Assembly: GCF_964355755.1 (NCBI RefSeq)
Contig: NC_092670.1
Coordinates: forward strand, 21,376,795 to 21,440,794
Length of the DNA: 64,000 nucleotides
Direction of reading: 5' to 3'
Source of the DNA: Antedon mediterranea
Lineage: Eukaryota > Animalia > Echinodermata
Shown here: positions 1,021-56,039 of the stretch, one piece after another
Numbering within the stretch: position 1 is the first letter of the stretch
How the letters are laid out: each line of letters opens with the position of its first letter
Position numbers and translations under genes: made by a program
Notes under the pieces: generated by a model
What the model was told of the DNA's origin: nothing
The model's database searches: none
What the model saw: the letters and a program-made list of their open reading frames with translations, nothing else

Positions 1021-2094
1021 ATAAGATTTAAATATTACCAACTAAACTCTTAATTTCTTCTAATTAAAGTGAATGATTCAAAGATATGAATAGGTTTTCT
1101 ACTACTACTGTATGTACACATTAGAGATGAGTGTTCTAGAGGTCTGCTGTACTATGTGTTTTAATATTAAAAACATTATATCACTACTTATTTATAAACA
1201 TCAATAATTTATGGGTTTTTAATGGTATGTTCACTGCAACTGTCAAATTCCAAGATTGCATTTCAGGTATAAAAACCATTTGTCATAACATTTCACTCAT
1301 CATTGTGAATGTAATCTCCAATCCAGGTCAACTCCACAGTCATTTTAAAGCTTATCTTAGTATTGGTCCTCCTGACCAGGGAGTTGTTATTAGATGGAGT
1401 AACAACAAATTTATCAACTGATCTACAGCCAATAAGCGACGAGCGGTATACAGGAACCTCAAAGGATTATGCAGTCAACTGGCACTAATTTCCTGCCTTT
1501 TGTTTGGAGTCTACTTTGCCGACGATGCCAGGCCCTCTATCGCCGGGATTCGTCCATTTTGAGTAAAGACTTTCGATGCATTCCTGACAAACAAACATTG
1601 TAGGCATGCGCAGATGATTCCTTCTTCGTCAATAGCTTTACAATTTGTTTACGTCATTAGAGAATTCTGCAATATATATTTTACAAAAAACCGCTTTAAA
1701 TTCCGACCTTTCGTTAAAAAGTTACGATAATTCAAAGTGTACGTTCATCTGTTTGTTTGTAGACCTTCTTTCGTGATTTTCAGAGACTTTTGGTAAGTTT
1801 TAAAGTTAATATTTGATATTTTCCGCACGTTTCTCCATTTTAACACCAGCGCTAATATTTAAAAGAGTATGTCTTCTATCATTCTCTTGATATCTTATTT
1901 TCTTACAGTTTCTTACATAATCGTAATTTTGGTTAAAATACAACATGTTTTTATAGGTGTGGGCATGTTGTCAGTAGTGATAAACGCCAGCGTGTAATCT
2001 GGGTAATTAACACCCTCCGATCGTATGTTTGTTGGCGGCTGGAATCGCCGATTCTGGTGATGCACTAGGTACACCACCAGGGCCTAGGCCTAGC

Positions 2095-2123
2095 CAGGGA
2101 GATGGTCTAATAACAAATCCCTG
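2095..2123. mobile_element. 29-bp TIR-TIR remnant (excision footprint) of the same TIR family, nested inside the element
   Basis: cagggagatgg + tctaataacaaatccctg match the left and right termini of 1377-3923. Flanked by an exact 7-bp duplication gcctagc (2088-2094, 2124-2130). Confidence 0.8.
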
Positions 2124-2348
2124 GCCTAGCCCTCTCCCTTAAATAGGCCTAGGCCCCTGCACGTATGCTAGGCGGGGAATTACCTATATAACTAAGCATA
2201 GCCTATAGAATAGGCCTATATAATTATAGGATGTCCACTATAAATAATAATTAATATTAATACAATTCTATGACTATGTATGAATGTACTGACTGTAATT
2301 TATTTTGTTGTCTTCCTGTTATTCATTATAGGAATTTGTACTGTAATA

Positions 2349-2744
2349 ATGGAAATACAGGCTATTTGTCGTTTATGTGGGCGAGAGACTGCTGCATCTG
2401 ACTCAAGACGTCTAATTTTGAAATCTGATTATTCAGATTTAATCCAGCGTGCACTACAAGTAGATGTGAACACGGATATTCTCCCACCATACAGTTGTAA
2501 CAACTGTTGAGTAAAACTTGACACATGGAAGAAGAATATGCGCTCTAAAAAGAAGGATGTAAAAATTGGAATAAACCTTGCTGATTTTGATTCCAGTGAA
2601 AAACAGACAGAAGAATCTTTTTTCTGTGAGGCAGAGGTAGTTGCATTGCATCTCAAATGGGATACATTCTTTGGAAAGGAGAAGACAAACACATGTTTAC
2701 AAACATTGTTATTTGTACATGATTGTACATGTATTTATTTTTAA
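2349..2744 (+). pseudogene. Truncated transposon gene: N-terminal CxxC...CxxC zinc domain (RAG1 N-terminal / Chapa / ZAD-like), probably a transposase N-terminus
   Basis: A non-coding exon ends at donor TG|gtaagt (1792), the acceptor ttatag| is at 2331 and the ATG at 2349. Translation: MEIQAICRLCGRETAASDSRRLILKSDYSDLIQRALQVDVNTDILPPYSCNNC*VKLDTWKKNMRSKKKD... One in-frame TGA (2508-2510); the two track ORFs 2280 and 2538 share this frame. Confidence 0.7.
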
Positions 2745-2809
2745 ATATGTATTTAATACAAAGAATTAAAAAATGACTCAGTATATCGATTATTTTTATT
2801 TACAGTATA

Positions 2810-3686
2810 TCATTCATTAAAAGCCTTGGTTACATTTAGATATACAGTACTGTTCAGTACTTGATTTTTCTTCTGCACTGTAGCCCCTTTCTTCTTTGTC
2901 TGTGCAGGGAGTTCCCTGGTCTGTGCAGGAACATCTTTGTCTAGAATTGAAAAAAAAAAACAATTAACATAACTCCCTGGTCATACATTTAATCAGGCGT
3001 TGTCAATTTAACTCCCGGCATTTGTTAACAAATGAAAAATACATAAATCTTCCCAATTGTCAGTAGTGACAGCCCAGGTCATAATTAATAAATGGAAATA
3101 ATACTGCATCATCAGAAAGTTGTTTTTATTGGGGTAGGCCTAGCCCCTACTTGACCGTCCCTCCCTTCCTTCCTGATGAAATATTAAAGTTCAATGAATA
3201 AATACCTGTAAAAAAAAGGCAACGTAAAAGGCCTCCTTTCTTTCCTAGAGATTCTAGCTAGGAACGGTAGGCTGCAGTAGTATCAAATATTGAATAGGCT
3301 ACACCAGTTACTAACCTGTTTCTTGAGTAGTAGTACTACTACTAGGTCGCTTAACACTAGGCCTACTTGAGCCAGGCCTATGCCCAATATTATTAACGTC
3401 GTGTTGTTGACAGCATTGCTCACAAACCCATTTGCCAGCTGGAACTTCAGAAGATGTGAGCAGTGAGCTTCACACATTCAAAATGGAACCATTCATTAGG
3501 ACATGCTTTTCCTTCACAAGCGATCATTTGATCGTCAGAACTTTCCCCACATGGGCAATACATTGGCACATTTTCATTTAGATCAACATCTTCTAAATCG
3601 CTATCATCGAAATCTAAATCGGAAAAGTCTACGTACACATCGGTATAGAAGTCGTCAGTTGTCATTGTGTGTCGCGATTGTATCAT
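2810..3686 (-). pseudogene. Two-exon acidic-tract + ING-type PHD finger gene inside the transposon, frameshifted by a 7-nt duplication
   Basis: Exon 1 is 3686-3316 (donor CAG|gttagt). Exon 2 is 2940-2810 (acceptor poly-T caattctag|, stop TGA), followed by minus-strand AATAAA at 2795-2800 and 2734-2739. Removing the 7-nt duplication at 3456-3469 restores YCPCGESSDDQMIACEGKACPNEWFHFECVKLTSSEVPAGKWVCEQC (complete C4HC3). It also makes the splice phases match, giving 164 aa. Confidence 0.85.
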
Positions 3687-5507
3687 CTGGCTTTCTGAAA
3701 CACCATGACGATGTGTGACGTAGGCCAGAGTTATTCAAGCGAAGCGAAGCAACTTTGACTTTTCTGCGCATGCGCGTGTCATTGATTACGTCAGGGAAAA
3801 TTGTTTATTTGATGAGGAACTGTTTATCGGGGATTAAGTCTTATCTATTTTACTTCCTGTCGGAAAAGTAGACTGATCAAAAGAACATACTATGATGTTA
3901 CTCCATCTAATAACAACTCCCTGTCCTGACCTACTTCTCCATAATTTGTGTGAATAAATTAACTTACTTAATTGTCATTAGAGTGGTGATATTTATCAGG
4001 TGATAATTGTTGATTACTGTTAATCAGGAGATTGCCTTCCTGTTGTGTTTTATCACTATCAGGGTTTTTTAAATGTTGCATATTTTAATTAGTTATGGCA
4101 GCTATTTTGAGCTTTGATTTTTCATTAGTATACTGAATCAGGCATGCATGTAAACCCACTTCATTGAAGCAACCGGTGCGTGATGAACTTTCATTTTAAG
4201 CTATACTGATGGACTTACAGTATATCCCAACATCAGTACAACATTTTTTGGGGGAATTGTTTGTGTTGTGTAACTAAGATCCTGTTTCTGCTGGGGAAAA
4301 ATAACCGATTAATACCATGTGAATAAATTACCCCCAATTTCTTAGCAGTAAAAGCAGGACAGATTTTCAATAACCAATTAAATGGCTTTGTGAAAATTAA
4401 GGTTCAAAACTTTATATAATAATAATATAATAATGCAATATAACTGTTATTTGCTTGACAGCTGTAGAATCATAAACATTATATACTGTCTCTGAAATGT
4501 ATAGTTATACTTATATAGTGTGTTAAATTTGTGTACAAACGCTCTGATTACTACTTGAGACACATGACTGATTTCTCTTAAATCCTACCACCACATATAA
4601 TTTCAGTGAATTCATCAGTTTCATTTTTTAACTCGTTTAATTGCATAAGGAAGTACATGTTGTTATTTAACTTTATTCAATAGTTGTACAACACCTCATA
4701 GAATTATCTTGCTGCCAGTGTTGACCTTATTATTATACTACACATTGTGATGGTAACTATTGAAAAGGGAAGTAGAATTATATAATACCCCGTGTCTTAT
4801 TAGTCATCAAGTACCTTGCCATTAGCTAGCACATTGTTATTGTTATGATAATGTTAAATAAAGTCATATATTTACAGCATTTTTAATGTTCTTATTACTG
4901 TACAGTGAACCTTATCATTTACATACATCTTATTACAAACCTTCTATTTTTAGTGACACACAGTCCTCAATGATGCCATTTCTACCTTTTTTTAAAAAAT
5001 TTGTTTTTAACTCATGGTTTTGTGAAAAAAAAAATCTCTCGGTATACTTGAAGTATTGATAATAATAATAATATAGGGCTTTCTTCTGAATTTCTCATAC
5101 ACCAACTTTCTCATTTACAAACTGCTTTCACTAGAAAATAGAATAACATAATATTCATAGTGTTTGAATTTTCCACTTTTCACCTTTGCTCACTTTCATT
5201 TCAATGTTTATTTAAAATCTATTTTGCCTTTCCTACTTCTCTCTAAACAGTTCTTCAACAATTTCACGAGCTCAGCTTCTGGATAGAATAATATTAGTGA
5301 CACATTCAACAAAACCAACCAGAGGTCCACACATTTTTTCGTTCTAATCTATTGAAATTGGATTCAGAAGAATTTTAACAACTTCAACAATCTAAATATT
5401 TTATATAGCAAACATTTAAATCTGATTTTCGTATTTGAATTTATAAATTAGAAGTGAGCCCTCTAGTGTCCATTGGATTATAAAAGTCATTATAAAATAT
5501 CATTAAA

Positions 5508-5710: not shown

Positions 5711-6111
5711 TTACATTATACAAATAATAATAATACATGAATATTACCTATTTTCCAATACAGAGATATATTTTGTGGCATAATTTATAAATATGCTGTA
5801 TTTGTGCAGAGACATTAATTTTAAAAGTATCATAGTTGATAGATACTGATAAAACCATCTTTTTTTAAAGTCATGTTTGCGTGCGATACAACATGTTTTT
5901 CAACAAGGGAATAAAGTAAAGTTGAAAAAGATGGTATATCACAAATCTCAATTTTTTCACCATGCAAATCTTTTGACAATTCTTAAAACAATCCATATTT
6001 TCTTTTCACAGATTCTTAAAATATAACAAGTTTCATAGGGTGACTCAGCACAATATCAAGCTGGATACCCCTTCTCTAAACCCATCATCCCCTGTAGGGG
6101 GTGATGAGCCG

Positions 6112-6676
6112 ATGGATGCCACTTTCAGTGTTCAAAGTCCTCAGATGATGGAGGTCTTGCAGACAGAGGACATTCCTGTTACGGGCATCTCAAACGTCAT
6201 CCTCCAACAAGGTCAAATAATGCAGCCTGACATTCTGCAAACTTCAGGCTTTCAGATCGGTTCCATTCAGCAGTTAGCAGCTCCAACCTTTCAAACGACA
6301 ATCGGTGGGATGCCTCTCACCACGTATACAACTTCTGGCATCCCGACACTTCAGACTGACATTGGTGGACAGCAGATCTTTATTCTCCAACAGCCGATTA
6401 CAGTGCCTCAAATAAAGATTGAAGATCAGCGACTACAGTTGCAACATCAGCAGTTACTGCAACAGCAACTGCAACAGCAACAATTGCAACAGCAGCAACT
6501 ACAGCAGCAACAACAATTACAGCAGCAGCAGCAACAACAGCTACAACAACTACAACAACAGCGGCAGCAGCAACAGCTACAGCAACAACAGCTACAGCAA
6601 CAGCTACAAAATGTGGAAACTGCACCAAGCATAGAGGAGACACCTTTGGGTGCCGATTTGGAGAAGAAAAAAGATG
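6112..6676 (+). CDS. MRTF: MRTF alternative N-terminal coding exon A (Q-rich/poly-Q)
   Basis: Acceptor tttcacag| at 6011 (or tttcatag| at 6038). The frame is open and the first ATG is at 6112, so coding could start in an upstream exon. Strong phase-1 donor GATG|gtaagt at 6676; G+TC of the RPEL1 exon gives Val, as in vertebrate KNV-LQL. Confidence 0.8.
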
Positions 6677-9600
6677 GTAAGTGTTTTATATGTTAATTTC
6701 ACAACCAATCATTCCTCAATAATGGTTCAGGTTTTCTCAGATAAGGACTTAAAAATGGAGGTACACCTAGAACTTGGTGCATCATCAAAATGGGATTACC
6801 CCAGTCTACTCGTCCGTTACAACCCTTGCCGTTCATGGTAGTCGCTGCTTACCTCAGTCTACTCGTCCGTTACAACCCTTGCCGTTCATGGTAGTCGCTG
6901 CTTACCCCAGTCTACTCGTCCGTTACAACCCTTGCCGTTCATGGTAGTCGCTGCACTGTAGACGCTTTGAGTCCTTGAGGACCTAATCTGATTATTATCG
7001 AAACAAACAAGTTTGGTCAGTGCATCAACTATGATAAGCTTTAGTGTACACAATGTCAATGTTGTGAACATTACATTTCATTCATTACATTTTTTAGCGC
7101 TGTGAGAATCAGTAAATAGCGGTTTATAAAGTTTATTATTATTATTAATATTATTATATCAATAAATGTAGGTAAAATATGAGATAATTTTCAATTAAAT
7201 TGCTATCGTCTGCACATGCCTACAAATCAATTGATAGCTTCCAATTGTTTCCACAGCTATACTAAATTATTTGCTCTGTATGTTTCAATTTTGTATTTGT
7301 TGAACTCTATATACAGTATAATAACAGAAATTTTTCTTTATTATTTTGTGTCATTTCATACAGTCGTCCCTATACATTGCCACCCCTTAATCTTATCATG
7401 TCAATGATCAATTATTTCGGGGTTTTCAGATATAAACCTTTCAAAATATACCCAAGGAATAATGCCAGGATCAAGTTCGTACAGATAATGTTCCTGTGTA
7501 TCATTCGCACTATGATAAAGCAAAAAAAAACTACAACTAAAATACAAAATAAGGAAATTGTATCTTTATTTGTTCATGGATGACAAACTTTCAATGATTC
7601 TTGTTCTTGTTATTTCAAATTGTGTTGAAGTTTCAGTGAAATTGTAATGTAAATATAACAACAATGGACCAGCTTTCTTATAGAATCATTCATAGCAAAT
7701 AGCAAAACAACAATTTACATACTATATTAAAAATTTAAATAAATGAGAAAAGAAACAATCTACTCAAGGATGTCAATGTTAAAAATAAAGTAAAAAAAAC
7801 AACTAGTTAGTAGTAATTTAATAAGATCAAGCACTTTTCTTCTATTCTAGTTTGATATGTATACTCATACAGTAAGTGATAATGTATAATTTTTATATTA
7901 ACGATATTGAGAAGGTTTAAAATGAAAAAACTGTTTTAGAACTCTAGGCCACGCAGTCGAATGATTGGTTGAGATTAAACCAAAGGGATTATCAGGAAAT
8001 CCCAGGGAATTGAAAAGATTTAAACATTAATCTTAGGTCATGAACCCTTTAAGCAATACCTGTTTTTACAAAAATTCCCGCTTAAACCTCACTTTCATAA
8101 TTAGTAAGTGATTAACTTGGTCCTTCAATAATTAGCCAGTTTTTCCTGATTAAGAATATTCTTTTAGATACTTTTCAATTATATTTAGTGGTCCTTGACT
8201 ATCAATAGTTCTTCCTGTTTATGAATATTCATTAGGTTATGTTCAATAATAAATTGTTATGAGGTATTCTATAGGAAGGTATGGTTTCCTTTTAAAACCT
8301 TCCCTTCCTGCTATACCTGGACGATAAAGTGCACTACCAACAGTTGGTGATGTTTGATTTTAATAAACCGTCCGGACACTGCTCATAAACCTTTGGATAA
8401 TATTTTTTATTGTAGATGCCTTGCTATAAAATAACTTTGGAAAATTTGTTGAAAGTGCTTTACTTTAGTTGTTATTGATATTGAACATCTATCTATACAT
8501 CGATTGGATTGTCCAATAATCAATACCTTTTGATTTTGAATTATATTTTTGTGGGTGTGTCAGTGAAGAGCAGAGCACAATCAACATTACTGTGGTACTT
8601 GTTATCTCATCGATGATTGGTTTGTCAATTTATTGAATCATGTCAAGAACTTAGGAGTTACTTAAGGATTTTATGAAAGAATGTTGTAGTTGTACCTTAT
8701 TGCTCTGAAATCTTTAACAATCTACTTACTAAAAGGATATTTTTAAATTTGTAATTGACTTTTTACTGTTAATACGAGGGGCGGTCTGAAGAATCTCTTA
8801 TGCCATCAGAAATCAACAGGTAGGCCTACAGTTAACACCTTTAAAAAAGCCTTTTCACACTATATTCGCTGAATTTTAAAGATCAGGTTTGGATTATATA
8901 AAATGTGAACATTTTTTATTAGTCTTCAGCTTATCCGAGTAAAAGTCGGTAGTAATAATCTTCAAAATTTATATCACACTGTTTAGCACTCAAAAGCAAA
9001 TAAAATTCTCTTTATGTAAATGTAATGTTGAGTTAATATAATATAATCTACAACGTGGGCCCGGTATAGGAATTTCACTGTACATTGTGGTTGGTACTCG
9101 CTATAGAAGCAGGAAGTAGTTGATACAATGAAGCGTTTTAATACTTTCAACTACTTTTTTTTTATTTTAAGAAAGGGTATGTTGTATAAAGCTTGATAGG
9201 CTTGCCCTAAACATGGAGATTTACCTCTTGACCTAAGTCTGTAGGTATTTGCCTTTTTTATGTTGTTAACCTACCAGTGTTTTGTCTAAAGACTACATTA
9301 GTAATTTTGATTATGTCAGGTATTATTAGTAAAATTCGAGCTGAAGTATTATACGTATGAAAGGCTATGTGTGCCGAAATATTTATCTTTTTACCAATAT
9401 TAAGTATTAAACTTTAATGGAAATCTAGATTTTTTGTGCTATTATTTTTTTTTATAGCCCCCTCTATTGTTAATATCATAGAGTGAGAGATTGTATTTTT
9501 CATTTTATGTCAGTAATGTGGCACCTCGTACAGTCTAGTTATTAGTAATACTCAAGTATCCATTGCTGCTTTTCACAGTAATATAGTTTATTTTAAGTGA

Positions 9601-18600: not shown

Positions 18601-21600
18601 ATGATCATTTTCTTCCTTTCGTTTTGAGTGTCGTTCTTGCTCCCTCACTCCCCGGTTCCATCATTCACCTACTGCGTGATGCCTACAACAACTGTTTAGA
18701 CGTTCTTTGTGTAGGTGCGACTGTTCCTGGCTGGAAATTACCCATTGCTGGCTTAGGGGTATCTCCTTACACCCATGGTATGTGAAGCACACTTCAGGAT
18801 TCTGGACCTCCTGGCAAACTTATTAACATAATGAGCCTGGCGCGTGCCCTGGCTAAAAATACATGTGATGTCATAGTATTATAGATAGTGAAGTATAGTA
18901 CTCTGTGTTGTAATTTATCTTGGCCTCTGAGTTCTATTTGATACAAGTTTTTAATGGCCAACATAAATCTTGGATTGGCTCCAGACAAGGTGTGAAAACT
19001 ACACACATACTACCTGTCTTATTATTTAATCAGTTTTTATGACTAAAGAATTGTTGATAAACATATAATACAGGTAAAAAGTTGAACTAATAATCAGTGC
19101 ATCATTAATGTACATACTGTACTTTGTATAGCACCCTCTACAAAGCAAGATTTTTCATTTTTATCAGATAGATAGGCCAGTTTACAACTCCCTAGATAGG
19201 CTTAGAAATAAAATTATCGTTACAAGTAGCAATAGTTCAGTCATTAGTACATCACCAAAAACAGCAAAAACATAAGATTAGAACATGATGACTGGAAGTA
19301 TATACTACTGACTGAGCAACTTAATATTTTCTTATTTTATCAAAACTATTTAGTAAATATGTTGGTATAACATATAAGTTCTTATTTTATTTTACATAGT
19401 TTATAAATATTTATCCACTAAGAAACTTTTTAAGTTTAGTTTCTAATTTAATTATTCACATTTTTTAGTTTCTAATTTAATTATTCATATTATTTGTGAA
19501 TGTTCTAGTATATTAGTTCGTACAGTACTCATTTAAAGATGTATTGTCCCCCAAAATTATGAAAAATAAAGATTTTTTTAAATCGGACTTTGAATAGGCC
19601 ATTTTGCAGTTTTAATGAAGTTGTTCACTTCCATAAGAAAAAAAACGGGGAAAAAAAATTATTTCACCTATAAAAAGACAAAATAAACAGTTAAATTACC
19701 CAAAAACTCATTGTCTTCCAGACAATTTGACCATTTTTTGCTTTAAATTACATTTTTCTCAGGTAAATAAATTTTTTTCAGACCCAATTTTTTGTGAGAG
19801 TGAATAACTATTATGTGACATTAAAATAACATATTCAACAAAAAAAATTTAAAAAATATTTTTTTAGGGGGACAATATATCTTTAACTTAAAATTAAATA
19901 AGAATTAATTGCTCCATAGTTTATTTACCTACTTTATTCTTCAAAACTTGATAGTATAATAATTGAATTATTCATATTATTTGTGAATGTTCTAGTATAT
20001 TAGTTCGTACAGTACTCATTTCACTAAAAATAAGTAATAATTAATTGCTCCATAGTTTATTTATCCATTTTATTCTTCAAAGCTTGATAGTGTAATAATA
20101 TAATTGTTCAAATTATGAAAGAATGTTCTGATAGTTAAATAGTTACTTAATATTTCACTTAAAATTAAGTAATTAATTCATTGGTTCATAGAGTTAAACT
20201 TTGCTCTGATAGCCTTGAGTTAATTTGCTTGTTTCCTTTTATTATCAAATACATTAGTCATTCAAGTGTTAGAATAATTAACCATAATTATCTTAATTAA
20301 TAGCAATAATAATTAGCTTGATATCCTGATAATAGTATGTCTAGCACCTAATTAGTAATTATAACTATTTATTTAGGATTTATTTTTGTTTGTAATCTAT
20401 ACTTCCTTTATTTGTGATAATATACACCATTATCAAATGATCAGGATACTTCACAGATAGGTTAGACTTTGTTGATGCAAAATTGCCATGATTGTCTAAA
20501 AGACCATGCAACACAAACTGTTGTTAAGATGCATCTACAAGAATCGCCCCCTTTGAATGTCATCAAACCAATTTTAATTCTGTTAAAAGATTTTCTTTTA
20601 AAAGGTTCAAACTTACTTGGTTTTTATAATATTCTTAATGCATAAAACTGAGTTTGTATTGACCCTATTTAGTAACCTATTTTTGGTTATATATATGATT
20701 TAGTTGAAATAAACAATGTTCAACATCCAATTTCAAAACGTGAATCAATCACATTTTTATAATATCTGATGATTTAATGTTGTTTCTTCATTGCTGCATT
20801 CCTCTATTGCAAAAAAAACGCATAGAATACTTCATATTTGCTTGGCGAATAACATCTTCCAAAAATGGTAATACTTGTAAAATTATTTTTGTTTTTAAAA
20901 TATTTATTTAAAGCATTACCCTTGAAGTGAACATTCATACTCATAAATATGATTTTTTAAAATAATAAACCATTATTATTGTTATTAGGATACATTAATG
21001 ATTGGAAAAAATGAAATATAATATAGTTATGGTACTTTTGAACTTGTTGCGGCCGAGATCAATAAACAAGTTATCATTCTATTTGGTTATATTATGTGTT
21101 TACCTCTAAAGGTATTTTGTTTTTCCAACATCCACTTTCCCAAAACACCTTTGGGAAAAAAGTCTGGTTGTGGTGAGAGGTTCTGGCGTTTAGTCTGATT
21201 TCAGAAGAGATTTACTATATTTCACTATCCAAGATTTGTTTTCTCTTTTATGTTTCAACTTTAAACTCATTTCGTTACTTAAAAGATTTTGATTCTGTTA
21301 TTAAAAATCTATTTAAGGAACATTTAGACCTTTTTTGAATGTGTTATTCTCTACCTTTTTAGTTTAAGACCAAAGCATTTAATTATTCTGAGGCTATTTT
21401 ACTTTTTACCTACAACAAACACTTTATTTCATAAAGGTATAGTTGTTGAAAACTGTTGATGAAAATCTATTTAGTTAGTCCTAACTTTTTGACTCTGAAG
21501 GAATGTGTAGAATTTTGTCCGAAATTTTAAGAGCCTGATTTGTTGATAAAACTAGATGGTTACCTGGCAACATTTCCTATCGGTGGGCAAGCCAAATAAA

Positions 21601-42600: not shown

Positions 42601-45600
42601 TTAATCTTCATCTCATTAAGCCCTATCAATCTAGCAATGTCAGTGCTTTTCGTTATCTGGTGTTGATGGTGTTATATTCGTATCGACATAGTTTTTATGT
42701 TTTCCTTGTACTTTCAAATTGTCTGCTTATTCTTTTGCCATTACTGCAGTAATGTGATGTCTTATTTCCCTTCATTCGTATCAACACAGTTTTTGTCTTC
42801 CTTCCTTGTACTTTCAAAGTCTGTTTACGCTTTTGCAATTACTGCAGTATTATTTCCCTTGATTGTACGTTCAAAGTATTTTGTGCTTATTTAGTTACTG
42901 CAATAATGTGATTTTCACAGTCCAGTGACTTTATTTGTGGAAGTTACATGTGCATGTGTACTGTATCATATTGTTGTTACTGAAATATTTGTGTGTTTAT
43001 GCCATTGTTTTAATGTAATAACAAACTATATACATATTGGTTAATTTTTCCCATTAGACATGTATAAATCCATTGGCGTTACCACTCATTGAACAATATA
43101 TTATTTTTGTTAAAAGGTAGTGTTGACTCTTGTGCAAGTTGTTTGTATATGTAGGTTCTCACTTGTGCTGATGACAGATAAATTAAGTATAAGATATCCC
43201 TAAGGATATAGAACATGTTGGACATAATAACATGGCCTATTTCTAGGTCCCTTGACATGGATTTGACCTAGTACTATCTAAGATCTGACTTGAGGCTTGT
43301 GTGGGACATACCAGAGGCCTGAAGGCGGGACATACCACCAGTGTAGCCAAGAGATACCTCCTACTTTACTATTATTCATACACCTACCTCCCCAGCCTGG
43401 AGACTAACGTGTGTTCTTTACCAAATTGCACCATGGACTATTGACCATTTGCTATGATCCAGGTGAAAAAATAAACTGTTCAGCTTACTTTAATCCAGGT
43501 CAGGTTAAAAGCCATTTCTGTGCTGAAGCATATTGCCAACTTCCTTTTAAAAAATGCAGTAAAAAGTCTAATACCTTGGTCACACCTTCCTCCGCGCATT
43601 TTAAAATAATAAATCCGGTGGTCGTATAGTATATATTTATTCTGAAATAAGTGGCTGGCTGACTAAGTCCATAGATTCTCGTTCTATCTGTGCCACATAT
43701 AATACCAGACCAACACAATCCATCTCTGATTTAACCTTAATGATAATTACATTAATTTGACATGGAAAGCGTGGGTATAGCATTCTGTTTTTAAAGATGT
43801 AGCTATCCAATATTCTTTCCAAGAATGGGTAAAACTAATAAAATCATTTTAGAGAACTAAATAATTATAATTTAATAACTACTATATTTGCAACTCTTTG
43901 GAGAAACAAAATCTGAAATCAGAAAAAAATTTGATGATAATTTTTGTAGACATAGCCTTGGGGTGTAAGACTGAGTTACCCGCCAATGTTTGCTTATTAG
44001 AAGAGTTACACAATAATCATACAATTTCCAAATTTAATTCCGCACGTGCAGGATTTAGAAATCTAGGTAACAATATGTGCAGTGTTCTATCAGTGTTAAT
44101 GTGATTCGACATTTGCTCTCTTTAAGGCCACCGTTCAAGCTGAGATGAAATGATTGAATGTGACTCTAAGAAGGCCTAGATTCACAATACCTTTTCACTT
44201 ATTTTTTGTTGAGGATTTTTATTTTGTTTATTCAGTGTTCTCCTAATTTCAAAATCAATTCCAGAAGTAAGATACCAAATCTTAAGTTATAGGCTATAAA
44301 GCTCTGTCTACACTATCAAATTTATGTGACAACAAATTGTGATGCAGACATGTTGATGTCATATCACTACCATATTTGGCCATATCACTACCACATTTGA
44401 GCACATCACACTTTTTTTTGTCAAACTAGTTTGATAGTGTAGACACACAGAGCTTTAGATTTATCTAAATCTTAATTTTAAAAAAAGGTCAAATATAGTG
44501 TATTTATTCATTTGAAAAAAAAACCAATGCTGTGGTGAGGTCACAAGATCCTAAGAATTTTAAAAAGTGTTTCAGTTAAAACCTTATCCACTGTACTGGT
44601 GATTACAGCCCTGCAAAATGTAGCCTCTTGTTTGCTCTTGTGTAGTGGCTGACCTAGCCTACCCCTATACCAAGTATTTTCTGGTTGGAGGTAATATATG
44701 CTGGTAAAAGCGGCATCAGGTGAACACTGCTCCTGATTCTTTATTTGGTAATTTTAATGTACAGATCGTGCGCAAGAAGTCTGCTTTTCTCATTGGAATA
44801 GTTACCCCTCTTCCCATCTAGTTCCCCTGCCTAAAGCCATTTCAAAGATGTTCATATCCTCATCCCATGGGAAATACATAGAACATATTTTGATGGTTCA
44901 AAGACTATGATTTGGGTCATTGAACCAAAAGATTGCTTTAAGAATTTGTATTTCACTATGGTTCATTAAACATAATAATATAAATGTTTCTTTTAATTAG
45001 TATTAAACATTAATGGTCTGTATTTGAATGAGCTTCCATAACTAATAATTGGAAATAACAATTTTGTAAATTAGGGTAAGGTATTTATATGGTGTAGAAG
45101 AGTTCCAGTCTTAGTTGGATCAACTTTTTTACATATTTTCTCATTTACATCTATGTAATTTCATGTGTGGCTGATATTTCTCTCCTTTAGTTTAAATTGA
45201 AATATACAGTTTTTAAAACTTGGTGGCTTAGAGCTATGAACCCCAAATTTGTTATCTGGAGGATGTGGGTTTGAGTCCTAATTTATTTAGAAGTATTTAC
45301 GAATGAGTATTCTATTCAATTATTTTACAGTACAACTGACTTGTGACTATAATATTATCACTTAAAAAAAAAACAATTTCTGCCAAAGGGTTGCCACAAT
45401 TTCTTTCAGTATTTTGTGTAGTCTATTATACTAATTATGCTGAGGGTCAAAGGTGATGATTTTTATTTCAGTCAAGTAGTCGATGTATTCTATTTCACCT
45501 GTAAATTCATAATCAACCACTTTCACTAAAGTTAATTCTAATCATTTGTTTTTGTTAACTTCTCAACTGCCTCTGGCTCAGTGCTAAGTTTCTCATACTG

Positions 45601-48600
45601 AATGTGGTAATTATCTGAGAACACTTGTTGTCATTTACGCTCCTGGCAGAGAGAACTCGATAACGTCAAGAATCTTATAACGACGTGGGTCTCATAACAA
45701 CATGGGTCTTGCTATGCTTTGGGCCTAGCCTAAAAGAAAACATTCTTTTGACCCCTGTTCTAGGGATATTTACTGTATTTTAAGAGGCTTAACAAGCAAA
45801 TGGTGGGTGTTTTACCCACTCTATGACTGGCCTGGAAGAAAAAAATAACTTTAATTAGCCAATTATACTCCATGTAGAAAGGTATACATTGACCTAGTAA
45901 GAATGTATATCCTGGTGAACAATATTATATTTACAAATGAGAAGGAGTTTGTGGTTAATTAAGAGTAATTGTCAGTTGATACTGCAATTAGCAAATGTAC
46001 TAGCTACCCACAAACCCTGGTAAGTGACAGAGCCATTGTTTATGACAAGCTTTGTAGGGAAAAAAACCATTATCCACTATAACCTAATTATTAGGTGGTG
46101 TAAGGTTGTAGAAAGGACAAAAGTTACCTAATTGTTAGTCTAAAGCTTGTTTTATATCTTGAAATTAAATCACGGAAAATAATGAGCTTTTCGATACTTA
46201 AAATGAACTTGGGAAAATGTCCATATCACACTTGCTATGTTGTAATGTAGTATATGAAAGTGTACCAAGCTTTGTGACAAGCAGTCTGTACACACTTGAG
46301 TGGGAAATATAGTGCGCCTTGCAGTAGATAGCTATGCAATGTTATTATCTGTTGCCGTTATAATTGTTACGGCGAAAAATATTTCAGAATCTTCCAATCT
46401 TCACAAAAGGTGATATTATAAGTGTCTGCACACCTGTTATAGATATGCAAATCATTCTAAAATCAGCAGAAAACAAGTGTCAATTAACTTTGAATTCCTT
46501 GGTCATCATCTAATTATATATTCAGGTATTCAGCCAATCGCAATACAAGTTGACCTTTTTACAAAACTTGATTTATACGCTTCTAATTATGTTCTATAGG
46601 TCGGTTACATCAGGCAATCGAGATAGTGAATATAATATCTCTATTATCAAGATTGATACCTGTTTTATATAGTATATAAATATTAATTTTTACATTACAA
46701 TATGACATGGCATGATGATATGATAAAATATGATAAAAATACATAGTTCCATAAAATGACTAGAAAATGTCTACTGTTTTATGGTTAGTTTAAAGAGAAA
46801 GTTGACACTTGGCAATATTCTTATATAAGTTTATTATTTTTGCTGTGATGTTCAGTAATATGAAATAAGATACTGAAGCTTGATGGTTGCTTACCAATAC
46901 CATAATGTTTGCAAAATGTTCTGTATCAAAGGTATATTCAAGTACATTTGTTCACAAACAGATCCATCGGAAAATTGACCTAATCTTGCTATACACTATG
47001 TTAGTTTGTGATGTGTGTTTTCGAGTACAATTATTTAAAACTAATTATAATCTTTTTTTAATAGGTTGGTGATTGTTTACAAAGGAAAATCAGAATGAGG
47101 CCAGATAAATCACAATTAATAAATCAACACATTCTAGAAGGTAAATACAAAAACAAAAGAGTATTCACTGACCCAGATCAATACTAATTAATAACTTCTT
47201 CATTAGATTTTATGCAACTTGTTTAATGTCAAAGGTTGAAGATAATTGTGAGTTAAACATGGGAAAGTGTGATATGTTATGGTGTAAATAATTATGCTAA
47301 AAAAGTTTCTAAAATATCCAGCTGCAGAGGGCAGCATTTACTGTGAGATTTGTATTATTAATTAATTTTAATTATTATAATAAAATGCTTTTTAATTTAT
47401 AAAATAAATTCAAAACTGACAAATATTATTGTTCTCATTTTTTTTCTAGACACCAGTACAGATCCACTAGTAAGTGCGACACACCAGCGCTTAAAACGAG
47501 CGCGGTTAGAGCGGGATCTTGAAGGGAAGATTAAAAATCGACCAGGTCCTTTGGAATTAATTGAAGAGAATATTTTGAAAACAGATAATTTAGTTGAGCA
47601 GATAATCAAAGGTAAGGATTGATAGAGGAAGAGTGAAATGTGTGTATAGGGTACAAACTAGTAATAGTATGAGTGTGGATCTTGCACCAAAGTTTTCAAA
47701 ACATTTTTATGTAATGGACAAAAATCAGTTAAGGCAAAATTAAAATTATTATTATATTATTATTAAATTATATTATTATACCTTATTATTTCATTTGTTT
47801 TTACAGATGGTTCTGTTGCCTTTATGAAAACAAACAGTATGGACATGCTGGACGAGGAGAGTCAAGAAATTTGCACTGATGAACCACCCTCACCTTCTCA
47901 ATCAGAATCATCTTCTGTTCTCTTTCCAGATGTCAGGTTTGCAAATGTTCCATCACCTCCAGATATTAGTACATTCTTTGAACGTTTAAAAAACGAATCC
48001 GGATTAAATACGCCGTTACTTGCCGCAAGTGGCTTACTTTCTCCTGGTCTAGATTCTGGATTGACGAGCCCTCAACAAGTGACGCCCCCAACACCGTCTT
48101 TATTTTCAATGCCGCCAACTCATACAAAGACATCGTCTTCATCGTCGTCATCAACAACTTCATCAAAATCTAGAAAAAAGCAAGCAAAGCGACCGAAACC
48201 AAAAGAGATAAAATTTCATGAGTACAAGCCCCCAAATGATACTAATAATAAAACATTGGCATCAGCAACTGATGATAACCCATATAATCTGCTATTAATG
48301 CAACAGCAGTTATTTTTGCAGCTGCAGTTACTGCAGCAACAACAGGCAATGCAACAGCAGTCAGGTAATCCAAAAGAACCAACCACATCCACATCCAGTT
48401 TGGGATCAATTGCATCTCCTGGAGGTAACACTGACACTGTGCCGGCAATACCACTAAAAGTTGGTAAAATTACTGGAAACCTAGAAGATATGAAAGTAGC
48501 TGAATTAAAAATTGAGTTGAAAGCCAGAGGACTTCATGTGTCCGGTACAAAACCACAACTTGTGGAACGTCTGCGGCCTTACACAGAAGCTTATGCAAGT

Positions 48601-50735
48601 CGTTCAAATTCAACATCCTCTACATACGATATCTCAACATCATCCCCACAAGGTAAAGTCAGCAGTTCAACAGATATTCCATTAGATGTAATGAGCGACA
48701 TCAGTGCTCCCTCATCTATCAGCAGCCCTCCAGTGTCACCACCAGAAATCAAACAATTACCTTCTGTCAAGTCTGAACCTATGTCACCTGGAAGTGTTTT
48801 TATGGATCCAATGTCGCCACAAAATCTCCAAAGCCAAATTGATTCTTTCACAATTTCTTCTCAGAATCCGCTGGAGGATTTCAAGCTTCACAGATCACCA
48901 AGTTCTGGCAGCATGAGGTCAAAGACCATTCCAATGGATATGGACAGTAATAGCAATCTTGAGCCATGTTTGGCAGACCTCACTTCTGAAGATCCCTCTC
49001 AGAATGATTCTAGCGACCTTGTGAAGCAGCAACAGAGGAAAATAGAAGAACTCCAACAGCAGTTACTTCTATCACAAATGCAAATACAACAACAGAAGCA
49101 ACAGTTACAGAGCCGACCTCCACCACCGCCGCCTCCACCCCTGCCACCACCAAGTCAAGCAGGCAATATGCGGCTGCAAACGACGACATCAACTCCGCAG
49201 TCTCTTATTCCAGGCATGATTAGGACAGTTCCAAGTCAGCTCTCTGCAGGTCAGATAAAGGTTACAAATACTACGTCTGGATCACCAGTAGGTCAACCAC
49301 CATCGTTCCAAGTTTCGCAAAGCCTTGCAGCTACTACTAAGGCGTTCTCATTTGGTATTCCTGCCACTGCACAACAGTTTACAATTCCAAAACATACAAT
49401 GGATTTGAAATCGGTTTCATTACCTAATGGGTTGTTTTCATCTACGAAAGCATCATCGTTGCCCAACAGCCCTACGGACACAATCACAGATGCATCAAGT
49501 TTGTCACGGTCATTGACGAATCCTACATTCACAATCCCGCCACCTAAGTATGAGGATGCTGTTCGACACAGTAAGGTAAGTCTATAGAACATGTTTACTT
49601 CGATATAACACAACACTTTCAAATTCAAAAAATGGATGTATTATGTTTTTAAAATCATGTAATTTACTCTTTGGCCCATCTTTTCACACAATTTATTCTA
49701 GATAAAGAATGGTAACCAAGCACAAGCAGGAGGAAATGCACGCAGTACACACACGCAAGACCTGGATGATCTATTAGAAGTTCTGGTGGACCATGGATGT
49801 AAGTTTTTTAAACCAATCCCATACTATAATGTTCACCTCATACTACGTGCCCTAAAGGCTTTCAATGTTCATGATGGATGTTTTTTTCTGTTTTTGTAAT
49901 CTATTAACAAAGTATTGACTACTAAGGAGGAATACACAGCTATTTTTGGTTCAAATTGTTCAATTGTTTAAACCAATGATAAACTTTGGAGATACAGTAT
50001 GATATTATTGGACGTTATATAATACTAATATATAATATACTAATATAATATCTAATGATTATCTTTTCAGATCAACTTCCCTTAACTCCTAGAAATCGAG
50101 GACACTTTACAGTTTCTAATAGCTTCCCCCAAACAATCACATTAACACAGTCACCTCAGCGAGTTCATCTATCGCCCCCTTTAACACCCCCAGAAGCACG
50201 CCACCCTCCACTGAATGCCATCTCTCGTTCCATGCCTCCTTCACATATGACCACTGAATTACCAATGGACATTGATGCAGAATTGAGTTTGGGAACAATC
50301 GATCTTGGAGTTGTAAAGAGTGAAAGAGTTTCACCTGACATGAAGAAAGAAGACCAACTTGCAAACTCTTTAGACATTACAATGATTGATGGCGATTCAA
50401 ACATTCTTGGCCTAGGAACGGATTCTTTAACAGGAACGTGCGCAAGTGCAGCAGACACACATCTTGACAATTGGTCGTTGACAGGACACTGTGCAAGCTC
50501 TTCGGACACAAATGTCGACAATTGGTTAGATTTAGTTATCCCAAGCTCTGGGAGTACGTTGACCCCGGTCAGCTGCACGCCACCAACGGGTCTATCAATT
50601 GAAAACGTTCTTGGGAATCCGCTTGGAAAGGATCCGTTTTCGTTGAATTTATTTGATCTAGGTGAAATAAGTACGCCGACGGATCTACATCATCTTGAAG
50701 GTGACGGATGGGACAATATACCAGTTGGCGAGTAG
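6112..50735 (+). CDS. MRTF: Myocardin-related transcription factor (MRTF/MKL/myocardin family), long poly-Q isoform: join(6112..6676,39961..40026,42143..42198,47065..47140,47450..47611,47807..49575,49702..49798,50071..50735), 1151 aa from the first ATG
   Basis: All introns are GT-AG, phases are consistent and the total is 3456 nt. Junction LEKKKDV|LALRLKLRRPREELVSQGIMP matches vertebrate MRTF RKNVLQLKLQQRRTREELVSQGIMP. Motifs present: three RPELs, B1 (KPKEIKFHEYKPP), Q (YNLLLMQQQLFLQLQLL), SAP (LEDMKVAELKIELKARGLHVSGTKPQLVERL), coiled coil, PPKYEDA and DDLLEVL. Confidence 0.9.
6424..6609 (+). repeat. Coding CAG/CAA poly-glutamine tract punctuated by Leu
   Basis: DQRLQLQHQQLLQQQLQQQQLQQQQLQQQQQLQQQQQQQLQQLQQQRQQQQLQQQQLQQQLQ, encoded by mixed CAG/CAA codons. 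Confidence 0.9.
6780..7160 (+). mobile_element. Degenerate L2/CR1-type LINE 3' fragment
   Basis: The repeated unit encodes LLVRYNPCRS, compared with the L2 ORF2 C-terminal LLxxYxPxRSLRS. The region ends agcgctgtgag...tagcggtttataaa followed by an (ATT)n tail at ~7133-7157. Confidence 0.4.
6796..6954. repeat. Tandem triplication of a 53-bp unit
   Basis: cagtctactcgtccgttacaacccttgccgttcatggtagtcgctgc recurs at 6802, 6855 and 6908, almost identically. Confidence 0.95.
10024..10188. repeat. Local duplication (~116-bp period)
   Basis: catcctctgcttttaaa(a)tgcaagtcaattaaaatcgctacagtaact occurs at ~10024 and ~10140. Confidence 0.8.
10569..10591. mobile_element. 23-bp TIR-TIR remnant (CATGGAGG family) with 7-bp TSD
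   Basis: ctgtact|catggaggaataatacctccatg|ctgtact, with an exact 7-bp duplication at 10562-10568 and 10592-10598. Confidence 0.75.
12947..13371. mobile_element. MITE with ~21-bp TIRs and internal taaccggtta motifs
   Basis: gagtctgtttctgctgcataa versus ttatgcagcagaaacaggccc (19/21 inverted match). A truncated copy of the left end lies at 21893-21950. Confidence 0.75.
17261..17289. mobile_element. 29-bp TIR-TIR remnant (CATGGAGG family)
   Basis: catggaggaatttaattatttcctccatg has the same termini as 10569-10591. Flanks attatac/atattac match 5/7, consistent with a decayed TSD. Confidence 0.6.
17620..18000. repeat. Degenerate minisatellite (~20-22 bp unit, consensus near atccaggtacttgcacatat)
   Basis: More than a dozen atccagg(t/g)actt cores. 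This explains the 17611..17829 ORF. Confidence 0.85.
19478..20190. repeat. Tandem ~140-bp duplication (two clear copies plus one decayed); copy 1 is interrupted by the TTAA MITE
   Basis: ttattcatattatttgtgaatgttctagtatattagttcgtacagtactcattt occurs at ~19481 and ~19968. The downstream aattaattgctccatagtttattta is also duplicated. Confidence 0.85.
19537..19882. mobile_element. Kolobok-type non-autonomous element (TTAA TSD)
   Basis: ttaa|agatgtattgtccccc ... gggggacaatatatct|ttaa. AG...CT termini with a TTAA target fit Kolobok. The interior is homologous to 63201-63526. Confidence 0.8.
21893..21950 (+). mobile_element. Truncated left end of the 12947-13371 MITE family
   Basis: gggtctgtttctgctgcata...aaatagatttaaaat matches 12947-13003. 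Confidence 0.6.
22030..23330 (+). promoter_or_regulatory. Candidate internal promoter for the basic-exon MRTF isoform
   Basis: CCAAT/ATTGG boxes at 22035, 22231, 22287, 22513, 22551 and 23276, and TATAAA at 23317-23322, ~560 bp upstream of ATG 23880. Confidence 0.45.
23880..23967 (+). CDS. MRTF: MRTF alternative N-terminal coding exon B (basic, NLS-like): MFMTRKRPRKPTSRKNGAPKEKKVKKDKK
   Basis: ATG + 29 codons + 1 nt, then the canonical donor T|gtaagt. Phase 1 fits the RPEL1 exon, giving ...KKDKKF-LALRLKLRRPREEL, and it ends KKDKK like exon A's KKKD. Predicted isoform 992 aa. Confidence 0.7.
25905..26310. repeat. Local duplication (~295-bp period)
   Basis: actatctataatt...aaccaaccatgagaaatg(g/c)caactttacatt.tatcag.tacttttgcaac occurs at ~25908 and ~26202. 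Confidence 0.8.
29372..29703. mobile_element. Harbinger/Tourist-like MITE
   Basis: taa|ggga...tccc|taa gives a TAA TSD, with imperfect TIRs (aaatacaca.tgcag...ttactgcag versus ctgcagtaactgcagaagtgtatattt). Confidence 0.5.
32085..32214. mobile_element. Small Harbinger-like MITE
   Basis: Inverted termini gcttggttcccactaga ... tctagggggaaccaagc, with internal (t/c)gcaa / ttgcg repeats. Confidence 0.65.
36478..36592. repeat. Degenerate tandem repeat, ~38-bp unit x3
   Basis: tatgctatgtttat...cagagg recurs at ~36483, ~36521 and ~36558. Confidence 0.6.
39961..40026 (+). CDS. MRTF: MRTF exon: RPEL1
   Basis: ttctttacag| ... |gtaagt; encodes xLALRLKLRRPREELVSQGIMP. Confidence 0.95.
42143..42198 (+). 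CDS. MRTF: MRTF exon: RPEL1-RPEL2 spacer
   Basis: tttttcag| ... |gtatgc; encodes PLKTPPAFHEQRQRLERAK, compared with vertebrate PLKSPAAFHEQRRSLERAR. Confidence 0.95.
42700..42915. repeat. Degenerate tandem duplication (~100 bp)
   Basis: ttccttgtactttcaaa...cttttgc.attactgcagta occurs at ~42702 and ~42802. Confidence 0.6.
44300..44454. mobile_element. Harbinger-like MITE carrying a perfect CArG box
   Basis: taa|agctctgtctacactatcaaa ... tttgatagtgtagac(acac)agagct|tta. Internal 21-bp unit catatcactacca.atttg; CCATATTTGG at 44370-44379. A second copy lies at 62296-62452. Confidence 0.8.
47065..47140 (+). CDS. MRTF: MRTF exon: RPEL2
   Basis: ttttaatag| ... |gtaaat; encodes VGDCLQRKIRMRPDKSQLINQHILE. 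Confidence 0.95.
47450..47611 (+). CDS. MRTF: MRTF exon: B2 basic box + RPEL3
   Basis: ttttctag| ... |gtaagg; encodes DTSTDPLVSATHQRLKRARLERDLEGKIKNRPGPLELIEENILKTDNLVEQIIK. Confidence 0.95.
47807..49575 (+). CDS. MRTF: MRTF large exon: B1, Q, SAP, coiled coil, poly-Pro, PPKY
   Basis: tttttacag| at 47806, in frame with the 587-aa track ORF; donor AAG|gtaagt at 49575. Confidence 0.95.
49702..49798 (+). CDS. MRTF: MRTF exon: start of transactivation domain
   Basis: ttattctag| ... |gtaagt; encodes IKNGNQAQAGGNARSTHTQDLDDLLEVLVDHG, compared with vertebrate SQQMDDLFDILIQSG. Confidence 0.9.
50071..50735 (+). CDS. MRTF: MRTF terminal coding exon (acidic transactivation domain)
   Basis: cttttcag| at 50070, in frame with the 226-aa track ORF; contains DNWLDL and FSLNLFD; stop TAG at 50733-50735. 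Confidence 0.9.
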
Positions 50736-55132: not shown

Positions 55133-55657
55133 GTAAGTTTGGTCTTTTTATTTATCATAAATTATTGCCAATATGTTATTCGTAATATTGATCTCAGTCT
55201 ACTCGTTGCTAGGCCGGGAATTTCCTCTTCCTGCTCCACATAAAATGAATCGCCCTCCGTGGTGATTCGTTGACAGAACAGTATACCGTCGACAGATATA
55301 CCTAGGCCTAGCATTTTTTTGGTGATAGATAGATAGCCTACACAGACTAGTCAGATCCCATGCATAGAAGTTGCACCATCTATGAAAAGTAACAGTATTT
55401 GGATAACAATACCTTAATGTGTGTGTATATTTATTCATCAATTCATATTTTCTTCAGTCATGATGGATGGACACATGCAATTGAATAGGTTTTTGCAATA
55501 TTTCTTTTATTTATCGTAGCTAGGCTAGTCTTAATTTCGCCTAGTAGTGTAGTGATGGTACTGGAGCCTGGAGGACAATGTAAGCTCTTTTCTGTCACAG
55601 TGCAAAAATTGAATCAAACCATTTTAAGTATCTTTGTAGATATAACTAGGCCTAGAT

Positions 55658-56039
55658 ATGATGGATGAAGAGATACATGTTGATGGCCTACCAAGCTCCC
55701 AAGCACTACAGAAACTACACAATGCAATACAGAATGAGATACAGCTATTTCAAGATGACTTACGCAAGTCTCAGTCCATCCTTGCAAACTTAAGCCAGCC
55801 GTCAGGTCTTTGGCTTAGCCATCGTTCTCCCCTGCACTGGCTCAGGGCATTGTTTATCTTTATAGCCTCGGTTGTGTTGACTGTAGCATATGGATGTTCT
55901 GGCAATGAGTTGTATGTTATCCAGGCATTGATTTTGCTTGTTTTGCTAACTTTAAATGTGTATGTTACTGGCTGGGACCATAAATTGCAACGCAATGAGA
56001 TGGTTCGTCAAGGACAGCGTATTTTAAAGTATATTAAAG
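55658..56039 (+). CDS. TMEM94: TMEM94 coding exon 1 (TM1-TM2)
   Basis: GLPSSQALQKL...HWLRALFIF...LLVLLTLNVYVTGWDHKLQRNEM; donor G|gtaaat. Confidence 0.9.

Follow-up and report, generated by a model that had tools for sequence, protein, structure and literature searches.

The stretch of DNA considered here comprises 64,000 nucleotides of the echinoderm Antedon mediterranea (assembly GCF_964355755.1, contig NC_092670.1, positions 21,376,795 to 21,440,794 of the forward strand; hereafter the window, from the first letter of which all coordinates are counted), and its subject is a transposon-like element of 2547 bp at 1377-3923 that carries two convergent genes and no catalytic gene. The element is bounded by terminal inverted repeats (TIRs) of 28 bp, the left one (1377-1404, + strand) beginning with CAGGG and the right one (3896-3923) lying on the - strand; they are the same at 28 of 28 positions and at 30 of 31 if extended. 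Target-site duplications (TSDs) of 7 bp, not 8, read TCCTGAC on either side (1370-1376 and 3924-3930). Termini of CA..TG together with a 7-bp TSD fit the P superfamily, for which 7-8 bp are typical. The first 21 bp of the TIR match the window twice, compared with no match in 100 shuffled versions, and this TIR/TSD pair is the sole one in the 64 kb with a TIR of at least 14 bp and a TSD of at least 4 bp.

Parts of the element are contained in 16 public sequencing runs from six studies, four of which (X1, X5, X6 and X10) were compared in detail. In three of the four (X1, X5 and X10) contigs join position 1369 directly to 3924 and thereby skip 2554 letters, i.e., 2547 + 7. The length of this skip corroborates the TSD, and the joint itself represents an empty allele. 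The perfect repeats and the 7-bp duplication named in the first-pass annotation, a model's reading of the letters alone, are thus borne out. Contig depth in X1 is about 340-480 within the element vs. about 20 in the flanks (depth not being equal to copy number), and the main X1 contigs differ from the window copy by 0-5 letters; taken together, these observations point to many near-identical copies. Organism C possesses orthologous flanks as well as a related copy, and as both have diverged by a few per cent, vertical descent suffices as an explanation. Other deletion forms are also seen in the contigs, namely a low-depth skip of 1195 bp (1936-3132) in X1, and TIR-to-TIR joints (1393-3905) occur in X1, X5 and X10. 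A search of metagenome contigs with the TIR pattern gave a single chance match inside a bacterial carboxylase-like gene, which was discarded.

The gene on the + strand starts with a promoter region and a non-coding first exon (1604-1792, 5' end approximate), where GCATGCGC at 1604 resembles an NRF1 site. The donor after 1792 opens a GT..AG intron (1793-2331) that is seen spliced out in X5, the joint being absent from X1 and X10. Within this intron lies a TIR-like 19-mer (2106-2124) in right-end orientation, perhaps a former end or a site bound inside the element. The open reading frame (ORF) that follows (2349-2744, 131 codons) encodes a zinc domain of the ZAD/NZD type, NZD denoting the N-terminal zinc domain of RAG1, and is what remains of the N-terminus of a likely P-type transposase; a catalytic domain is not included. 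A TGA at 2508-2510 is private to the window copy, as all four runs read A at 2508, so that the family makes a 131-amino-acid product. Longer forms diverge at 2701-2703 (+ strand): X1 has loose ends on both sides, listed with a length of 255 on each side, and X10 carries other sequence, 588 letters long, from 2694 to 2706. Both departures fall at one place and mark an internal deletion in the + gene, in keeping with the earlier description of the element as a deletion derivative. The 30 letters visible past the junction leave the frame open when read by eye, and the long form of X10 could encode up to about 310 amino acids.

The 3' ends of the two genes overlap at 2739-2800, with polyA-like signals ATTAAA at 2765 (+) and AATAAA at 2800 (-), and one X6 contig spans both genes without a break. 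On the - strand, an acidic tract and the first part of an ING-type PHD finger (3469-3637) are followed by a short tandem duplication (3456-3468) that shifts the PHD frame and leads to a stop at 3447-3449. The last Cys pair of the PHD and a linker (3316-3455) thus lie in another frame than the first part. The duplication is shared by the main contigs of X1, X5 and X6, which means that the last two zinc ligands are missing from the amplified copies; the same contigs lack 2 nucleotides at 3635, so that the likely start codon moves. A GT..AG intron (2941-3315), the spliced joint of which is present in X5 and X6 and in neither X1 nor X10, leads to a second exon (2810-2940) encoding a low-complexity tail. 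As the splice joins this exon in frame to the second half of the PHD, an ancestor had a whole gene of about 150 codons. X10 lacks coverage of about 3220-3885, a gap that is not to be read as absence of this part. Upstream of the - gene stands the palindrome GCGCATGCGC (3766-3775), likewise NRF1-like.

None of the runs is recorded as RNA, and RNA as the source of X5 is a guess; depth was not taken as expression, and expression of both genes is argued solely from the spliced joints. Two spliced genes pointing inward, tail to tail, had been proposed before and are confirmed by the GT..AG introns and by the joints in X5 (+ gene) and in X5 and X6 (- gene), and the quoted + peptide, the acidic tract and the PHD lie where they had been placed. 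The gene structure had been positioned correctly and required refinement with regard to the private TGA at 2508, the PHD frameshift at 3456-3468 and the 2 nucleotides missing at 3635.

Relatives of the + gene and their zinc domain

Taken by itself, the + ORF of the window is poorly informative. Scans against a domain library gave weak scores for zf-AD (E 0.009) and the RAG1 family (E 0.41), the former being better, and did not find THAP. The isolated domain retrieved one irrelevant pilin match in a single-sequence PDB search, and its single-sequence AlphaFold model (predicted local distance difference test, pLDDT, 41) was not usable. Word-indexed homolog searches yielded 0 of 57 and 0 of 6 candidates, and no relatives were found in viral contigs or PHROGs; the full HMMER scan alone found them, with 18 matches at E <= 0.001 among 1.84 billion proteins. 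The zinc domain is common to 17 of these, the remaining one (P0013) being a spurious repeat protein that was rejected. Four of the 18 run on into the P-type RNase H domain PF21787 (E 6e-18 to 7e-27); RING, RAG1 core and THAP occur in none of the 18. The named relatives stem from crinoids, a sea cucumber, a starfish, a sea urchin and acorn worms, with the addition of one mussel cluster member; among them are XP_033103726, XP_038052534, PIK36054, XP_077868123 and XP_077994664.

A profile search returned 19 proteins, 15 of them new. PF21787 is present in seven of the new proteins, and three of these seven are full-length transposases of 854-865 amino acids with a GTP-binding domain (GBD) and D/D/E motifs; Holothuria, Lytechinus and Strongylocentrotus have full-length genes. 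The eight of the 19 proteins without PF21787 at E <= 0.05 bear a RING, carry the domain in tandem or have no known partner. Overall, PF21787 was detected in 11 relatives and PF21788 above the cut-off in four, while THAP was found in none of the 35 relatives scanned and hAT domains in none of the relatives scanned. The domain order is NZD, middle Cys/His domain, coiled coil, helix-turn-helix, RNase H and GBD, and the three full-length proteins end about 45-60 residues past the PF21789 match, without the C-terminal domain PF12596. Databases already label some of these relatives as P transposase, ZAD protein or RAG1-like. In order to avoid circularity, a profile was built from the 11 P-catalytic proteins alone; its top match in the PDB was the Drosophila P transposase 6P5A (E 8.9e-19) and the second clear match was the mouse RAG1 NZD, 21WB (E 1.8e-5), the latter limited to the N-terminal region. 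Scores of the window domain are 29-53.5 bits for the 11 P-catalytic domains, every one of them included, vs. 9.5-25 bits for five RING/Chapaev-like ones. On these grounds the fusion of an NZD to a P-type transposase is well supported in the relatives as a prediction from sequence, and the lineage of the + gene is likely a P variant without THAP and not a canonical P/THAP9 member.

With regard to the domain itself, a profile of 15 domain sequences placed 21WB first among 177,635 PDB sequences (E 1.6e-9), the best ZAD in the same search reaching E 0.05. Eight zinc ligands are in register with 21WB (H102, C110, C113, C175, C178, H206, C210 and C213). The window protein matches the four of ZFa (C110, C113, C175 and C178, its own cysteines 7, 10, 50 and 53) and none of the four of ZFb (H102, H206, C210 and C213), which are absent at either end. 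Among the 11 P-catalytic relatives ZFb is of type I in five, type II-like in three, mixed in one and absent in two, the type II-like proteins having two N-terminal and two C-terminal candidate ligands as in type II Chapa. The motifs of Kapitonov and Jurka (2005), as far as given in the accessible part of that work, are present in the relatives and in part only in the window protein. Judged by these alignments, the zinc-domain family is homologous to the RAG1 NZD and Chapa, and the domain encoded in the window is a reduced, predicted one-zinc form. The likeness to RAG1-N/Chapa proposed in the first-pass annotation therefore holds for the family, being recovered by the profile of the relatives more strongly than the letters alone could show, and the window's own domain scores better against zf-AD than against the RAG1 family. 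Compared with the RAG1 NZD and Chapaev Chapa, the relatives differ in joining a P core instead of a Transib or Chapaev core and in having no RING next to it; furthermore, the H2 insert of the vertebrate RAG1 NZD is missing in the domain family of the element.

In five of 17 relatives the protein ends at profile positions 315-329, immediately past the coiled coil, and the long form of X10 is roughly similar. These truncated proteins (P0006, P0008, P0009, P0010 and P0014) are 325-342 amino acids long, and four of them are named and stem from four species; the ORFs of several longer relatives end elsewhere, near 610-645 of the profile. KP proteins are truncated repressors of Drosophila P, in which internal deletion likewise spares the N-terminal zinc domain; the longer forms here retain the coiled coil as well. 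By analogy, the five short relatives and the X10 form suggest a recurring truncated KP-like class; the 131-amino-acid form of the window differs in lacking the coiled coil, and repression would be an analogy here.

Several observations weigh against the descent of the element from NZD-led P transposons. The link to P consists of about 90 N-terminal residues of 31-45% identity and of the structure of the ends. An AlphaFold model of the domain of one relative (pLDDT 85) matches ZAD structures (Z 5-6.5), in agreement with a likeness of ZFa to ZAD reported in the available part of a nuclear magnetic resonance (NMR) preprint (bioRxiv 10.64898/2026.01.24.700457); 21WB was listed in neither fold search and may be missing from the fold libraries, so its absence is evidence neither way. 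A domain tree, computed without P0013 and the near-duplicate members of clusters and with two spurious rows still included, places the window sequence on a long branch in an open group (83/76); it is poorly resolved, and the P-catalytic sequences do not form one clade. The zinc domain is found next to RING, as tandem pairs and in further proteins as well and thus moves from one context to another. The truncated relatives may be artefacts of gene models, and CAGGG ends with a 7-bp TSD fit hAT7 too, CAGGG termini being found in hAT. As a side observation, P0032, P0033 and P0036 each contain two tandem NZD domains with full ligands, the first two looking like host proteins with low-complexity flanks.

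Sister P elements and the source of the ends

For comparison, 12 P loci were taken from animal contigs that had been binned into prokaryote genomes, four of them with clear boundaries. The bins concerned (L002-L013 from G001-G005) are contaminated with long contigs of animal origin that carry introns as well as THAP and P elements. In the four delimited loci, five TIR pairs of 30-50 bp with CATAGA ends were found, all CA..TG and all with a 7-bp TSD; three weaker TIR pairs of other kinds are also listed at the sister loci. Duplications of 7 bp are likewise given for 1360 and Galileo in the literature as far as available. The element thus shares with the P superfamily (Drosophila P, 1360/ProtoP, Galileo and THAP9) the CA..TG ends and TIRs of about 30 bp, and its relatives share the helix-turn-helix, the split RNase H with D/D/E and the GTP-binding insertion. 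It differs in that a zinc domain of NZD/Chapa type leads the protein in place of THAP, and the window copy differs in lacking the catalytic region and carrying a convergent PHD gene. The P catalytic domains of the relatives and the 7-bp TSDs of the sister elements accordingly uphold the P-type assignment made at first sight.

An NZD was found in none of the 12 sister loci. THAP was not found inside the four delimited sister elements either, where introns could hide it, and a replacement of THAP therefore holds relative to canonical P. NZD-type matches in the mis-binned animal contigs correspond to RING/Chapaev-like or ZAD proteins, with a P core in none of seven regions. Two of these contigs (L024, 8466-9545, with a RING-like motif, and L025, 4380-4691) encode NZD proteins of Chapaev or RAG1L type, around which no TIR or TSD was found.

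Ends of another superfamily, a hAT with a 7-bp TSD or a Kyakuja-like element, could carry the NZD-P fragment and the PHD gene as cargo. Duplications of 7 bp are made by hAT7 and Kyakuja according to the parts of the literature at hand, the TIR does not clearly resemble the CATAGA ends of the sister elements, and the TIR-like 19-mer lies within the first intron. Set against this, the + gene opens close to the left end with a non-coding exon of its own, as expected of a transposase gene, the nearest P relatives also have a 7-bp TSD, and hAT7 and Kyakuja are reported, in those same parts, from fungi. In the comparison with hAT7/hATw the 7-bp TSD is the one feature that fits, no hAT domains being found in the relatives. 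We regard such a composite origin as quite unlikely and P-type ends as the likelier reading.

The convergent PHD gene

The PHD of the - gene has Tyr, Met and Trp at the aromatic-cage positions by which ING fingers read H3K4me3. Of its 43 matches in the PDB the first 20 are ING, YNG or Pho23 proteins, with ING1/ING2 best (E 6e-11), and RAG2 is absent among the 43; the RAG2_PHD profile scores weakly (E 0.052), and no kelch repeats were seen in the element. An Atlas search with the PHD gave generic PHD clusters (<0.9). A search of five genomes found four matches, all in ISL2EU-like genes. Three of the four are convergent with a THAP-DDE_Tnp_4 transposase (L047, 2951-7176; L048, 3053-5351; L049, 3574-5620), two of these elements being deletion derivatives that lost YqaJ and kept a short PHD gene, and the fourth ends a YqaJ protein. 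The accessible text on ISL2EU (PMC4482050) describes a THAP transposase and a YqaJ gene and does not mention a PHD. ISL2EU (PHIS) thus resembles the element in pairing a zinc-finger-led transposase gene with a convergent gene ending in an ING-type PHD, and differs in its THAP-HTH-DDE_Tnp_4 transposase (HTH, helix-turn-helix), its YqaJ nuclease and a 2-bp AT TSD, none of which was seen in the element. The best scores of the PHD against ISL2EU and ING, 43.8 vs. 45 bits, are nearly equal, so that either could be its source.

Since the PHD is ING-type and ISL2EU elements carry such a convergent gene, the acidic tract and the PHD are, as predicted domains, no sign of RAG2. The link to RAG2 drawn in the first-pass annotation therefore falls away, and the architectural parallel to RAG1/RAG2 is not supported, the PHD also being frameshifted in the dominant copies. 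An origin of the element from a RAG-like, Chapaev or N-RAG-TP transposon, with the two genes as RAG1L and RAG2L remnants, nevertheless has points in its favor: the convergent layout, the homology of the domain family to the RAG1 NZD, the weak RAG2_PHD score and two relatives automatically annotated as RAG1-like. ProtoRAG/TransibSU is likewise a TIR element with two tail-to-tail, intron-bearing genes, an NZD-type start and an acidic stretch with PHD. However, its ends are CAC and its TSD 5 bp, as opposed to CAG and 7 bp here, and the RAG core and kelch propeller are missing from the element, in which no RING was found either. Both RAG1-named relatives run on into the P-type middle domain. For Chapaev and N-RAG-TP, the literature as far as accessible gives TSDs of 2-5 bp for the CMCT clade and a Chapa often followed by RING. 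N-RAG-TP of Aplysia is similar as a TIR element of RAG1-N-like sequence without core (PMC8355894, in the part available), yet RING-bearing relatives score much below P-type ones. We consider a RAG or Chapaev origin highly improbable.

The PHD gene might also be a fixed functional second gene of an autonomous NZD-P family, i.e., an accessory reader that would direct the transposase to chromatin marked by H3K4me3, a reading compatible with the P assignment. A promoter-like site, an intron and a polyA signal belong to the gene itself, and the in-frame splice to the second PHD half indicates an ancestor that made a whole PHD. In addition, a convergent second gene is likewise placed in all four delimited sister P elements (- strand; L004, 12497-13543; L005, 12751-13734; L007, 12441-13610; L013, 12633-13730). 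This gene, however, is a different one: it encodes proteins of 328-390 codons with 28-31% mutual identity, without PHD and without counterpart in the window. The comparison with PF12596 was weak and positive for one of four (E 0.026), nothing was found in the PDB, and a transposase profile gave a probability of 1.3%; possibly these elements represent a P clade in which the C-terminal domain has become a separate gene. The convergent two-gene layout is consequently normal near this clade while the partner differs. The same second gene has 31 matches in four of the five genomes. A convergent ING-type PHD occurs in none of the 12 P loci, an indirect comparison as these lack NZD, and one of the 12 has a same-strand PHD of another type. 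Moreover, the frameshift is present in the dominant copies of organisms A and B, and the long-form contig of X10 parts from the window sequence at 3135, short of the PHD exon, a weak point resting on 28 letters. A fixed partnership thus seems somewhat doubtful to us; as the frameshift takes away the last two zinc ligands, the predicted PHD gene is most likely a passenger in the amplified copies.

The remainder of the window contains host exons at 47767-50732 with a SAP domain (E 3e-12), belonging to a gene that we take to be myocardin/MRTF-like, an exon at 55646-56068 that is presumably TMEM94-like, and a Gln-rich exon at 5977-6693. Dispersed and tandem repeats of 77-85% identity occur at 19433-20191 with 63197-63530, at 44299-44462 with 62295-62462 and at 60926-61407.

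Proposed origin and significance

In summary of these comparisons, the multi-copy 2.5-kb element without catalytic gene is probably a recent deletion derivative of an NZD-led P-type transposon lineage. Its + gene would descend from an NZD-led P transposase, and an intact transposase of this kind encoded elsewhere in the genome would bind the ends, cut and insert with a 7-bp stagger in a cut-and-paste manner and would recently have amplified the derivative. By analogy, the NZD may take over the job of THAP in binding the element ends, or may dimerize as ZAD does. The 131-amino-acid product and the form of up to about 310 amino acids would be non-catalytic and could damp transposition in the way of KP repressors. 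The acidic/PHD gene would encode a predicted ING-type H3K4me3-reader module, the most likely source of which is an ISL2EU-like element or an ING gene of the host.

The element itself is an ordinary-looking non-autonomous derivative, and its value is that of a pointer to the lineage. Kapitonov and Koonin (2015; PMC4411706) state that no other known transposable elements encode the Chapa domain, and according to the NMR preprint (bioRxiv 10.64898/2026.01.24.700457) Chapaev is the one further lineage in which the NZD is consistently retained, with an undefined role and sporadic uncharacterized matches; its supplementary hit table may include some of the proteins described here. In the literature compared, partly in extract (PMC1131882, PMC8355894, 10.1101/100735, PMC12730594, PMC3698922, PMC12905397, PMC4482050 and PMC10983969), we found no description of an NZD for transposases of the P type in a search that did not extend to subscription papers or Repbase Reports. 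The predicted presence of NZD on P-type transposases is thus the new part, a convergent ING-type PHD gene also occurring in ISL2EU.

The lineage bears on two open questions, namely where the RAG1 N-terminal zinc domain came from and what it does. With complete two-zinc copies present on P transposases, the restriction to RAG and Chapaev no longer holds, and the domain is seen to move between superfamilies. As the NZD sits where THAP binds the ends, a direct test of the role of the domain before V(D)J recombination is offered, and the family displays one-zinc, type I and type II-like states that correspond to the steps proposed in the accessible part of the NMR preprint. A more far-reaching reading, which we hold to be unlikely, would see in the P elements of echinoderms and hemichordates the third place where the RAG1 NZD resides, and possibly a donor of it; there the NZD would bind transposon ends in place of THAP, with an autonomous family pairing its transposase with a convergent H3K4me3 reader as a second origin of a RAG1/RAG2-like system on a P core. 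If true, the two-part RAG1/RAG2-like design would have arisen twice, in animals in which RAG-like transposons are active.

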